From assembly GCF_003334765.1 (NCBI RefSeq), contig NZ_QOWT01000014.1: a stretch of 64,000 nucleotides of DNA; one strand, 5' to 3'. The position numbers and the translations under genes were made by a program. This document shows, in pieces, positions 41,212 to 44,277 of this stretch. The stretch comes from Escherichia coli. Its GTDB lineage: Bacteria > Pseudomonadota > Gammaproteobacteria > Enterobacterales > Enterobacteriaceae. How positions within the stretch are numbered: the first letter of the stretch is position 1; each line of letters starts with the position of its first letter. The notes beneath the pieces were generated by a model that was not told the origin of the DNA, made no database searches, and worked only from the letters and a program-made list of their open reading frames with translations.

Positions 41212-42477
41212 TTAAGCTTCAGCCGCCAGCATCTCTTTCTTACGTTGGCTAATACGCTTAACCAGCATTACGGAAACCACCGCACCACTGAATGCGAAGC
41301 AGGCCATAATGCCAAACACGATTTTGTAGCCAATAATCCCCGGATTTAAATCCAGAATGTAGCCATACAGACTGAAGCAGAACATCGCCGGAGCGTAACC
41401 AATAAAGCTACCCAACGCCATCGCCGCACCTGTTTTATTTTCAGCAATTTTTGCTTCGCCGATAGGTGCAAAAAATACGGCTCGCTGTGTAAAGACTATC
41501 GCGCCAAAGCCCAGCGTACATGCCATCCCTAAATAGACCGGCATACTTTCGTGCGGCAGCATAATCAACAGTACGAGCGCAGCGGTACTAATGATAAAGG
41601 TGTAGCATAGATATTTACTTGGCGATTTCAGGATCTTATCTGAAATCATGCCACCAATCGGTCCACCAATCATTTTCAGACAGTATTGGTTAATGATGCC
41701 GTAAGCCCCCACCAGCGCAACGGGCAATAGATAGATGTTTTTCAGGAATGGAATGAAGAATGTCAGGCCACAGTAAACCGCGTAAACGAAGAAGACGTTA
41801 AAAGCGATAAGCCAGATAGTTTTGTCTTTCAGCACCGAGGTCATACTGGTGTTTTTCGATGCTCCGTCTTCTTTTTTCACCTCAACGGACGGTGCCTCTT
41901 CTTTGTCATTCAGGACAAAGAAAATAATAATGCCTACGGCAATCACAATAAGGGAATAGAACCAGATGCCTGCTTTAAAACCTAATAAGCCACTGCCAAA
42001 CCAGGTAAATACTGCCAACGCAGAAAATGCCACCACGGTATCGACAATGCCACGCCCTGTTTCGAAGAAGCCAAACAACCGACCTTGTTGTTCGCTATTG
42101 CCCAATCGACTTACCGACTTGAGCAAGACCGGCCAGTTCATCATGTCGCAAGTAACGCCAAATAGCGCCCAGACAAAGAGGATGCCCCAATACCCCGGCA
42201 TTGTCGTCAAATAAACACCCAGTAATCCTGTCGCAATGAGTGAGAATGACATGGTGTATCTGCGCGGTAGTTTATCGGCAAAATAAATAGACAGAAAAAA
42301 GCCCACTGTGGTGACAAATGAGTTTACCGACATAGCATTACCAATTTGACCATTGGTCAAATGGAAATATTCCTGCATCGGGATATAAAACGCATCTTTC
42401 AGCGACGGTAATTTATAAATTGTACCGCCACACAGTGTTAATAGACTAAATAACGCCCATTTCTTTTTCGTGAGCAT
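41212..42477 (-). CDS. yihN: MFS-family transporter
   Basis: 421 aa, 12-TM-like hydropathy. Confidence 0.88.
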   Translation of the reverse strand: MLTKKKWALFSLLTLCGGTIYKLPSLKDAFYIPMQEYFHLTNGQIGNAMSVNSFVTTVGFFLSIYFADKLPRRYTMSFSLIATGLLGVYLTTMPGYWGILFVWALFGVTCDMMNWPVLLKSVSRLGNSEQQGRLFGFFETGRGIVDTVVAFSALAVFTWFGSGLLGFKAGIWFYSLIVIAVGIIIFFVLNDKEEAPSVEVKKEDGASKNTSMTSVLKDKTIWLIAFNVFFVYAVYCGLTFFIPFLKNIYLLPVALVGAYGIINQYCLKMIGGPIGGMISDKILKSPSKYLCYTFIISTAALVLLIMLPHESMPVYLGMACTLGFGAIVFTQRAVFFAPIGEAKIAENKTGAAMALGSFIGYAPAMFCFSLYGYILDLNPGIIGYKIVFGIMACFAFSGAVVSVMLVKRISQRKKEMLAAEA

Positions 42478-42578
42478 AACATCCCCTAAGCGATTTTTAA
42501 AATCACTGTTTTAAAGGCAATAAGATACCGACCATTCATATGGAATGGTTTTATTAACTGCGTATGAGTTAAAACTTA

Positions 42579-43559
42579 TTAGTGGTTCAGAAGATGGTTT
42601 GCCTCTTGTTTGATTTGTTGTAGTACGTTACGCACATGATTTATCTGATTAATTGCATCTTCTTTTTCTTTACGTAACCGCGCATCCAGTAAATGATTTT
42701 CTGGCAATGGTGTTTCACTCATCTGGCGATAAGGGATCCACGGATTATCATCTTCGTCTTCAAAGCGGAACGCCGGCGCATAGTAATCAACCTCTTCTTC
42801 CAGGCCATATGCCGTCACCTGCGGCTCATCATCACCCAGGCAGATAAGGTGCGTTAATAACGCTTTGAACGGCATATCACCCTGACCTGAAATACAGGCT
42901 TTATGACCCAGGCCACCCGGTTCTTTAACGATCAAGGCATCTTTGATATGGACCTGGGTAATATGCGGTGCCATCGTTTTTAAAGCGTCGATGGGATGCT
43001 CATTTGCATTGATCATGTTCGCAAAATCAAACAGTAAGGAAAGAGATTCCATCTCACTTTCTTTGACCAGCGACACCAGCTCATGACTTTTTAAATCTTC
43101 ATGCTGCTCGATCGTAAAAGTCAGGCCGCTGTCCTGATACGTTTCCCGTACATAGGCAATGTCGTTAGCGATAATCGATAATACGTCGCGCAAATTACCT
43201 TCATAACGTGGATAAAAACGTACGGACGATGCCCCAGTTTTCAACGCGATGGCGACGGCTTCGTCAATAGATGCCTTATCTGAGGCGCTGGTTTCAATAT
43301 GAATATCAAGGTTCAGACGGCGGGCTTTATCCCCAAAGGCAGAGAGTTCTTTATCGTCCATATTACCAAGAGAAAAACGCTCGCCATCGAGAACATGGAT
43401 TTTGACGCCACGTAGATTATTTTCACTTGCGATATCAAGTAAATCAGCAGGCAACACTCTTTCCAGCCGCATATTTAAATGAAAGGCATAAGCATGTAAA
43501 TAAAGAGGAAGAGTGTCGACACGTTGTAGAATCTTTCTTGCGTTATTTATTGTCACCAT
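42579..43559 (-). CDS. yihM: Xylose-isomerase-like TIM-barrel (sugar phosphate isomerase/epimerase) family protein
   Basis: 326 aa MVTINNARKILQRVDTLPLYLHAYAFHLNMRLERVLPADLLDIASENNLRGVKIHV... Confidence 0.88.
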   Translation of the reverse strand: MVTINNARKILQRVDTLPLYLHAYAFHLNMRLERVLPADLLDIASENNLRGVKIHVLDGERFSLGNMDDKELSAFGDKARRLNLDIHIETSASDKASIDEAVAIALKTGASSVRFYPRYEGNLRDVLSIIANDIAYVRETYQDSGLTFTIEQHEDLKSHELVSLVKESEMESLSLLFDFANMINANEHPIDALKTMAPHITQVHIKDALIVKEPGGLGHKACISGQGDMPFKALLTHLICLGDDEPQVTAYGLEEEVDYYAPAFRFEDEDDNPWIPYRQMSETPLPENHLLDARLRKEKEDAINQINHVRNVLQQIKQEANHLLNH

Positions 43560-43566
43560 AAAACAC

Positions 43567-44277
43567 CTACAGATTAATGATGAGGTCTACGGCCTCAAAT
43601 CGCCAATATTCAATATCTATTTGGACAATATTGCCTTGCTGGTCGGCGCGATGCTTTTCAATTAAGATCGCTGGCATACCCGCAGAACCGCCAAGATACT
43701 TGCTGATATCGCCCGGCATTCTGACGGGTTTGAAAATCAATTTTTTTACTACCGTCTCTTTTTGGTAGCACTTTTCCCAGACTGCAGAAAATGAGTGGTT
43801 TTCAAGTTGTTCAATAAAGCCCGGAGCAACTTCAGGATTAATATATGTTTCGTGATAGAAAACTTTATGTCCTTCCAGCGCCCCCCAGCCGGTGATGCGA
43901 TAGAGTTCAGTTGATGGCGTCACTGCAATCAGTGGCGCGAGCGTCTCGGGAATATCGCTGGTACGGTTTTTCTCGGTAAACCCCCAGGAAGGCTCTCGCC
44001 CTTGCTCAATTGCGGCCCGCTGAAAGCTCGCCGACAGCTCCGGACTGTAATTAAATCGCGGCTGGGTCACGAACCACCCCTTACGATCCTTACGGAAGAT
44101 TTTGGATTCTGCCTCGAGGTTCAACAACGCCTGGCGCAGCGTCATACGTTTAATGCCCAGCAGTTCTCCCAGCTCTCTTTCTGAAGGGAGTTTTCCACCC
44201 GGCGTGGTGATGCCATCTTTCAACCACCGATCCAGTTTCTCTTTTGCATTTTCTACGGTGGATTGATTCTCCGCCAT
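43567..44277 (-). CDS. yihL: GntR-family transcriptional regulator (UTRA effector domain)
   Basis: 236 aa with N-terminal GntR HTH (KLPSERELGELLGIKRMTLRQALLNLE). Confidence 0.88.
   Translation of the reverse strand: MAENQSTVENAKEKLDRWLKDGITTPGGKLPSERELGELLGIKRMTLRQALLNLEAESKIFRKDRKGWFVTQPRFNYSPELSASFQRAAIEQGREPSWGFTEKNRTSDIPETLAPLIAVTPSTELYRITGWGALEGHKVFYHETYINPEVAPGFIEQLENHSFSAVWEKCYQKETVVKKLIFKPVRMPGDISKYLGGSAGMPAILIEKHRADQQGNIVQIDIEYWRFEAVDLIINL

Follow-up and report, generated by a model that had tools for sequence, protein, structure and literature searches.

The yihLMN genes of Escherichia coli form a portable regulator–enzyme–transporter cassette independent of the adjoining sulfoquinovose genes

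What does a compact group of three genes do when its best-known neighbours serve the breakdown of sulfoquinovose, and does it belong with them at all? The question is raised by yihL, yihM and yihN, which are among the genes of Escherichia coli K-12 still without a function and which lie in a 64,000-nucleotide stretch of E. coli DNA (contig NZ_QOWT01000014.1; hereafter the window), where 4.5 kb around them is 100% identical to strain K-12 MG1655 and is annotated there as yihN, yihM and yihL. The initial annotation of this DNA described three minus-strand genes for a regulator, a TIM barrel protein and a transporter of the major facilitator superfamily (MFS), and coordinates, domains and the MG1655 annotation all agree with that description (Table 1); it was also aware of no assigned substrate, and indeed literature searches on the three genes and on the operator sequence found no assigned function, yihL turning up solely as a linked marker or in a list of candidate transcription factors. 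Here, we describe yihLMN as a system of an ordinary type, a repressor-controlled uptake-and-conversion operon, whose enzyme comes from an uncharacterised subfamily of PF01261. Our explanation, which we hold as a whole with moderate confidence, is that yihLMN is an autonomous, self-repressed operon, unrelated to sulfoquinovose catabolism, for the uptake and one-step conversion of a small polar metabolite; what is new is a conserved operator, autonomy from sulfoglycolysis, a residue-by-residue comparison of YihM with AsbF, the absence from YihN of the arginines typical of organophosphate antiporters and the association of the enzyme with importers and phosphatases in other bacteria.

That the three genes belong together is seen from their conservation in a scan of one genome per species, giving 80 loci, in which open reading frames (ORFs) were called and pruned by a criterion based on third-codon-position G+C (GC3), and their products clustered. 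Regulator, enzyme and transporter follow one another in this order in 51 of the 80 loci, spanning Escherichia, Citrobacter, Raoultella, Serratia, Buttiauxella, Morganella, Pragia, Budvicia, Edwardsiella, Aeromonas, Photobacterium, Acinetobacter and the Neisseriaceae, and YihM homologues at 60–85% identity are widespread in the Enterobacterales, Aeromonas and other groups. The flanks of the cassette are unrelated in more than 10 genera, Photobacterium and Acinetobacter included; in Morganella, Aeromonas and Serratia, yihM again sits between GntR/UTRA and MFS genes on the same strand, amid wholly different neighbours. yihLMN is a real, portable unit, beyond chance association, that occurs in gut, urinary, fish-associated, marine and rhizosphere bacteria. 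Within E. coli itself it is found in 4423 of 5426 complete genomes, with about 1000 (~18%) lacking it; strain WB61 retains only a 66-nt remnant of yihN, and in other strains the genes are interrupted by the insertion sequences ISVsa5, IS903B, IS1B, ISEc31 and ISEc47 (see also locus L087), which together suggest relaxed selection in some E. coli lineages.

The cassette also carries its own candidate control site. A perfect 12-bp palindrome, TGGTTTAAACCA, precedes yihL and recurs 12–30 nt upstream of the regulator start codon in about 55 loci across the taxa that carry the cassette. The perfect sequence occurs exactly once per ~17-kb locus, always upstream of the regulator gene, except in the Marinobacterium/Oceanospirillaceae loci, which have three or four copies, and in one Rhodobacterales genome, which has two; the whole window holds a single copy. 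HutC-type operators are known for a GT-N-TA-N-AC core (HutC/dre-like), and this core is readable in TGGTTTAAACCA close to the predicted promoter of yihL itself, such that we take the palindrome to be a putative YihL operator. If transcription starts as that promoter predicts, the palindrome would span about +3 to +14, a typical repressor position, and the TTG at −35 and the TA...T at −10 recur at an equal distance from the operator in orthologous loci. The gap between yihL and yihM is 7 nt, and a search for terminators inside yihLMN found none, the two hairpins of the yihM–yihN spacer being without a run of T. Because of the conserved palindrome, the short gap and the terminator-free spacer, yihLMN reads as one putative autoregulated operon; together with the conserved gene order, the same features support the small substrate-inducible utilisation unit proposed by the initial annotation.

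Both hairpins of the yihM–yihN spacer are conserved, as judged from predicted folds, in Escherichia, Citrobacter, Pseudocitrobacter, Yokenella and Raoultella. The first (CCATTC-N5-GAATGG) is kept by compensatory changes in three of its seven pairs across related genera, while the second abuts the yihN Shine–Dalgarno sequence and partly pairs with it in the predicted folds; they could act on mRNA stability or translation, or else constitute a protein-binding inverted repeat. Variation is also seen in the operator. One paralogue group carries TGGTTTATACCA, one base different, in place of TGGTTTAAACCA, and some Citrobacter and Buttiauxella genomes possess two diverged copies of the cassette (loci L010/L047 and L031/L052), the second whole-cassette copy being ~60% identical and having the TGGTTTATACCA operator (L047, L051–L053, L055 and L056 as against L010, L011, L061 and L031). 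Two copies with differing operators suggest separately regulated cassettes for related substrates.

Does the cassette nonetheless serve its neighbours in E. coli? The initial annotation suggested that it might handle a metabolite related to, or downstream of, sulfoquinovose, which would make yihLMN an accessory part of sulfoglycolysis that imports or converts dihydroxypropanesulfonate (DHPS), sulfolactaldehyde, sulfolactate, a sulfo-sugar or another sulfonate. The unit does adjoin ompL-yihOPQRSTUVW, both in E. coli K-12 and in a small number of other Escherichia and Citrobacter species, YihN is distantly like anion-transporting MFS families, and sulfonates resemble phosphonates while YihL resembles the phosphonate regulator PhnR. 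Against this, homologues of ompL, yihO/P or yihQ adjoin the cassette in just 4 of the 80 loci, the adjacency being limited to Escherichia and a few Citrobacter, and in the Enterobacteriaceae it is the typA–yihL junction that is conserved while the opposite flank varies. WB61 has cleanly lost yihLMN with typA and ompL-yihOPQ left intact, about 1000 of the 5426 E. coli genomes lack it, and scanning the 64-kb window found no copy of TGGTTTAAACCA in the sulfoquinovose (yih/CsqR) cluster. The initial annotation was right to place ompL and a repetitive extragenic palindromic (REP) element beside the unit, and this arrangement is one of convergence, with ompL facing yihN across REP-type palindromes that part the two units. 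The phosphatases and the phosphate exporter found with relatives of the cassette would, moreover, be senseless for sulfonates. The sulfoquinovose suggestion therefore rests on lineage-specific adjacency, given the 4 loci of 80, the variable flank, the loss in WB61 and the missing operator copy, and the two sets of genes are not co-inherited. We show here that yihLMN is independent of the sulfoquinovose cluster, and read it as unrelated to sulfoquinovose catabolism; a tempting but unsupported link is thereby removed, and a sulfoglycolytic role in any of the above forms is highly improbable.

The regulator offers the first hint as to the type of ligand. YihL has the composition of the HutC subfamily, an N-terminal GntR winged helix (PF00392, E 1.7e-19, residues 8–70) followed by a C-terminal UTRA domain (PF07702, E 1.6e-21, residues 91–230), and its nearest solved relatives are YvoA/NagR and DasR. 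Its best NCBIfam match, over the whole length, is TIGR03337, the model for the 2-aminoethylphosphonate regulator PhnR (183.4 bits, E 5e-54), with other HutC models scoring ~50 bits. The score nonetheless falls short of the curated equivalog cut-off of 296.75, and neither phnW nor phnX occurs in any of the 80 loci; YihL does not qualify as PhnR itself.

The transporter is likewise a member of a known superfamily. YihN matches MFS_1 (PF07690, E 1e-26, residues 33–364), a search by sequence found no solved relative, and its best NCBIfam matches are weak, one being to the PgtP family of organophosphate:phosphate antiporters (OPA; 72.5 bits, cut-off 407.75) and another to the galactonate transporter family. 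The OPA-family transporters GlpT, UhpT, PgtP and AepP are thus its nearest family-level comparison, with an alignable region in transmembrane segment (TM) 7; identity to GlpT by BLASTP is, however, 20%, and the two substrate-binding arginines of GlpT, R45 in TM1 and R269 in TM7, are aligned with S25 and Y234. As the counterparts of both arginines are absent, YihN is not a canonical organophosphate:phosphate antiporter, and for this reason we rejected that assignment. Variation at the transporter position is found in Marinobacterium, where an NCS1 permease takes the place of YihN, and in Crenobacter, where a protein of the small multidrug resistance (SMR) family does.

A phenotype has been published for yihN: its knockout lowers the accumulation of several cationic benzothiazolium and rhodamine dyes 10–100-fold, from which the authors infer influx activity (PMC8131027). 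Together with the SMR protein in Crenobacter and the fact that yihM came up when over-expressed genes were screened for resistance to oxidising agents (PMC8228696), this could be taken to mean that the unit is not catabolic, with YihN acting as a general cation or drug transporter and YihM as an enzyme of detoxification or repair. How much dye a cell accumulates varies with its membrane potential and can change for many indirect reasons, however. It is also typical of nutrient operons to have their own HutC-type repressor with an effector domain and an enzyme partner that is strictly conserved, and in relatives the regulon includes ABC importers; we consider a non-catabolic unit most improbable. 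A further observation on the Serratia loci is that the cassette lies ~0.7 kb from thiM-thiD-like genes (L005, 11014–12605; also L006, L026, L029 and L033), which encode a hydroxyethylthiazole kinase and a Phos_pyr_kin-family kinase read as ThiD-like. Benzothiazolium cations are the dyes on which the yihN knockout has its greatest effect; the parallel, probably coincidental, is noted as a lead.

Further information on the likely substrate comes from bacteria in which the enzyme keeps different company, the most relevant being those that share the operator. In Marinobacterium/Oceanospirillaceae (L062, L065 and L076) the region with three or four operator copies separates two divergent operons, one encoding regulator, YihM and NCS1 permease and the other a binding protein, two ATPases, two permeases and a phosphatase of the inositol monophosphatase (IMPase) family, in that order. 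The Rhodobacterales locus L081 has its two operator copies followed by regulator, YihM and IMPase genes, and a Rhizobiaceae operon encodes binding protein, two permeases, ATPase, YihM and IMPase, with a MocR-type regulator. In Paracoccus a YihM–YihN operon faces an ABC–IMPase operon, and in Pseudogulbenkiania and Crenobacter a HAD-IB phosphatase replaces the IMPase, with a Na/Pi-PhoU protein or a SugE-like SMR protein adjoining YihM. Phosphatase genes of two different folds thus accompany the ABC importer or come after yihM. In Photobacterium, yihM and yihN are separated by an inserted RidA gene, and in the Rhodobacterales an agmatinase-like ureohydrolase gene comes directly after yihM, abutting it in Gemmobacter. 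The structure closest to the alpha-proteobacterial binding protein is PDB 5t1p, for which a literature search found neither paper nor ligand.

A useful comparison for these operons is the acc operon of Agrobacterium, in which the AccABCDE importer, the phosphodiesterase AccF and the IMPase-family phosphatase AccG deal with agrocinopines and pyranose-2-phosphates. The Marinobacterium operon that shares the YihL-operator region encodes a homologue of AccA (266 bits, E 5e-78, versus 125 bits for the next family-5 protein) at the head of the gene order given above; it differs in having neither AccF nor AccR and in having a YihL-like regulator, and the E. coli locus has no ABC or phosphatase genes whatsoever. 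Tentatively, these contexts fit a logic of two modules, in which an ABC importer and a phosphatase would deliver the compound from its phosphate ester, YihN or the NCS1 permease would import the free compound and YihM would convert it.

Some loci with an importer hold additional genes. Choline dehydrogenase genes lie within a few kb of the YihM cluster in three lineages, Rhizobiaceae, Marinobacterium and one Rhodobacterales genome (L089 1446–3131, L065 12314–13999 and L081 5161–6834; BetA model 749 bits, cut-off 732), two of the three loci having a betaine-aldehyde-dehydrogenase-like gene as well; this may be chance or may point to a functional tie with quaternary amines. In Pseudogulbenkiania ferrooxidans a gene with an integrase domain lies directly 3′ of the YihM gene (L039, 9506–10693), and the cluster of ABC, phosphatase and YihM genes there may stand at the edge of a mobile island.

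Phosphate chemistry in the relatives, taken with the PhnR-like regulator, raises the alternative that the unit handles a phosphonate or aminoalkyl phosphate, with YihL sensing a compound like 2-aminoethylphosphonate, YihN importing it and YihM transforming it. The PhnR regulon of Salmonella (phnR-phnSTUV-phnWX) would be the model, given that YihL matches PhnR far above other HutC models, that the ABC ATPase of the Rhizobiaceae operon scores 432 bits against PhnT2 (cut-off 458) and that the binding proteins and permeases of the alpha- and beta-proteobacterial relatives weakly resemble PhnS and PhnU. The IMPase of the Rhizobiaceae operon is HisN-like (257 bits, cut-off 275), and such phosphatases, the HAD-IB phosphatases and the Na/Pi-PhoU protein would suit a phosphorus-bearing substrate, for which an MFS importer has a precedent in AepP, an importer of 2-aminoethylphosphonate (PMC8316502). 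Against the proposal, none of the 80 loci encodes PhnW, PhnX, PhnA, PhnY, PhnZ or C–P lyase, and YihN is without both of the phosphate-binding arginines of the OPA family. The Salmonella regulon differs, too, in that the enzyme of yihLMN is a TIM barrel and its importer in E. coli an MFS protein. To our knowledge, no PF01261 enzyme cleaves C–P bonds. With YihL also below the equivalog cut-off, we judge a phosphonate unit to be decidedly unlikely.

The nature of the conversion depends on YihM. The protein matches the PF01261 profile and is predicted with high confidence to fold as a (beta/alpha)8 TIM barrel, beyond which a family-specific extension of ~70 residues terminates with a long helix. 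S91, R114, E151, H153, E154, E160, D178, N181 and H204 are invariant, as are R265, S281 and E298 of the conserved C-terminal extension, while 26 of 27 sequences have K206 and 23 of 27 have E254. E151, D178 and H204 align with metal ligands of Art22, 3tva and AsbF, and with E254 they would complete a Glu-Asp-His-Glu metal site; where the initial annotation had reserved the possibility that YihM lacks the catalytic metal-binding residues of its family, these are kept. Its label of xylose-isomerase-like TIM barrel holds for the fold, whereas ‘isomerase’ as the sole description names one of several compatible chemistries. Searches among solved and predicted structures found that the close relatives of YihM are all uncharacterised, the solved proteins nearest to its family profile being Art22 (E 2e-19) and then the 3-dehydroshikimate dehydratase AsbF (E 2e-15).

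A histidine and a lysine of AsbF, the counterparts of YihM H153 and K206, act in its catalysis. With these two residues and the metal site kept in YihM, both isomerase/epimerase and beta-eliminase/dehydratase chemistry are left open. The active centre of AsbF comprises Y70, R102, E142, H144, D172, H175, H198, K200, F211, Y217 and E253 (PMC9324987), of which R102, E142, H144, D172, H198 and K200 align with YihM R114, E151, H153, D178, H204 and K206, and E253, outside the aligned stretch, probably corresponds to E254. YihM shares its fold and its metal ligands with the AsbF/QuiC dehydratases and Art22, and has the E-x-H and H-x-K motifs found in AsbF, but differs in its 14–20% identity, in N181 at the position of AsbF H175 and in its conserved C-terminal extension.

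A more specific proposal follows from this likeness, in which YihM would be a dehydratase of the AsbF/QuiC type whose substrate, imported by YihN, is a carbocyclic keto-acid or a keto-cyclitol such as 3-dehydroshikimate or an inosose. AsbF is, after all, the second-best solved relative, with 6 of its 11 active-centre residues identical in YihM and a probable seventh; P0121, the closest non-orthologous relative (45% identity), has its gene flanked by those for a TAXI binding protein and a shikimate-dehydrogenase paralogue, alongside iol genes; and the IMPase-family phosphatases and AccA-like binding protein of the relatives would fit phosphate-bearing six-membered rings, which AccA recognises. 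The replacement of H175 by asparagine and the impossibility of mapping Y70, F211 and Y217 argue in the other direction, as does the NCBIfam scan of YihM, in which no dehydroshikimate dehydratase model matched and IolE reached just 17 bits. The cassette provides no dehydrogenase to make a keto substrate, and we know of no protocatechuate route in E. coli, Morganella or Photobacterium. On balance we regard this proposal as unlikely.

Further from the orthologues, the family becomes more varied. Another distant relative belongs to a polyol-phosphate pathway with a glycerol-kinase-like kinase, an enzyme resembling glycerol-3-phosphate oxidase and a FucA-like aldolase, while the cluster representatives P0123, P0126 and P0129 lie on ~2-kb contigs with no neighbours to read. 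Since distant members occur in such different settings, the wider YihM family is probably not isofunctional. The distant homologues P0134, P0139, P0204, P0214 and P0217 (28–39% identity) also have N-terminal sequences like those of signal peptides or lipoproteins and long C-terminal extensions. Such N-termini are unusual for a ‘sugar phosphate isomerase’ and hint at secreted members of the YihM family.

A precedent for the overall design is found in operons where a HutC-type repressor accompanies a PF01261 enzyme, notably the frlABCDR system for fructoselysine and psicoselysine, which is substrate-inducible and combines a GntR/UTRA repressor, a dedicated importer and the PF01261 enzyme FrlC, a 3-epimerase. 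yihLMN likewise pairs a GntR/UTRA repressor with an importer and a xylose-isomerase-like TIM barrel enzyme, but has neither kinase nor deglycase, its transporter is from the MFS and not the APC family, and YihM has no detectable NCBIfam match to FrlC-type models.

How might the three proteins work together? In the mechanism that we propose, YihL, as a HutC-type GntR repressor closest to PhnR, would bind TGGTTTAAACCA across the predicted transcription start of yihL and so shut off yihL-yihM-yihN until an effector, on binding to the UTRA domain, causes it to leave the DNA. YihN would then import the compound, probably in its free, non-phosphorylated form, and YihM, using a divalent metal, would enolise a hydroxy-carbonyl group of it, leading either to isomerisation or epimerisation or to an AsbF-like beta-elimination (dehydration), with a product that can enter general metabolism. 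In other bacteria the regulator/enzyme pair would be joined by the ABC importer and phosphatase supplying the compound from its phosphate ester. The architecture and regulation of yihLMN are in our view very probably as described, and the two-module logic and the type of chemistry are more tentative, which is why the explanation as a whole is given intermediate confidence.

Several points weigh against it. The predicted yihL promoter is weak, matching consensus at 8 of 12 positions, and fell under the threshold of the consensus scan, which did not list it; the 101-nt yihM–yihN spacer could conceal an internal promoter for yihN; and the effect of the yihN knockout on dyes may be indirect. Neither a phosphatase nor a second enzyme is present in the E. 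coli cassette, such that the fate of the product is left unexplained. The clues from context also diverge chemically, with phosphate esters, RidA, ureohydrolase, SugE-like SMR protein, choline dehydrogenase, shikimate dehydrogenase and polyol-phosphate enzymes all represented, and the family may therefore be one without a single function.

The same divergence limits what can be said of the substrate. Phosphoethanolamine and phosphocholine, vitamin B6 vitamers, thiamine-related compounds, creatinine, Amadori compounds and aminocyclitols were each considered, and as none fits all contexts we name no substrate. A bolder and rather doubtful idea is that the YihL/YihM pair represents a widespread but so far unrecognised pathway for the breakdown of a sugar- or cyclitol-like metabolite that contains nitrogen (amino, guanidino or quaternary ammonium), and of its phosphate ester, with YihM releasing an enamine/imine or guanidine by AsbF-like metal-dependent beta-elimination. 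This would explain the RidA of Photobacterium, the ureohydrolase of the Rhodobacterales, the SugE-like exporter of Crenobacter, the phosphatases and the AccA/PotD-like importers. For the proposed uptake-and-conversion operon more generally, a defined operator, a predicted regulon, a set of catalytic residues and a shortlist of substrate classes are now available for testing, and the substrate, if identified, would probably reveal both a common nutrient derived from hosts or plants and a reaction new to the large and poorly charted PF01261 superfamily.

Table 1. Features of the yihLMN region, in coordinates of the window
Feature	Position	Strand	Description
yihL	43567-44277	-	236 aa; GntR/HutC-type repressor, winged helix and UTRA domain (ORF, Pfam); first gene of the unit
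yihM	42579-43559	-	326 aa; metal-dependent xylose-isomerase-like TIM barrel enzyme, uncharacterised PF01261 subfamily
yihN	41212-42477	-	421 aa; MFS transporter, presumed importer (ORF, MFS_1); last gene of the unit
Putative YihL operator	44291-44302		perfect 12-bp palindrome TGGTTTAAACCA, 13 nt upstream of the yihL ATG; conserved in ~55 loci
Predicted sigma-70 promoter of yihL	44311-44340	-	TTGCTT (44340-44335), 18-nt spacer, TAAGAT (44316-44311); read from sequence
yihM-yihN spacer	42478-42578	-	101 nt; two hairpins, no terminator
Hairpin 1	42531-42549		ACCATTC-CATAT-GAATGGT
Hairpin 2	~42483-42518		beside the yihN Shine-Dalgarno sequence
ompL	~40429-41121		convergent with yihN
ompL/yihN spacer	41122-41211		90 nt; REP-type palindromes read from sequence; marks the boundary of the unit
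typA 3′ end and intrinsic terminator	44441-44509	-	CCTGCCA-GCGA-TGGCAGG, then T9; insulates yihL from typA

Two of the boundary features were also compared with Rfam. Matches of the ompL/yihN spacer to naRNA4/REP-like families are weak and below the gathering score. The 3′ end of typA with its terminator, on the other side of the cassette, matches STnc370 (RF02064) with 55.6 bits, slightly over the gathering score of 54, and this segment may encode a small RNA derived from the typA 3′ untranslated region, directly upstream of the yihL promoter.

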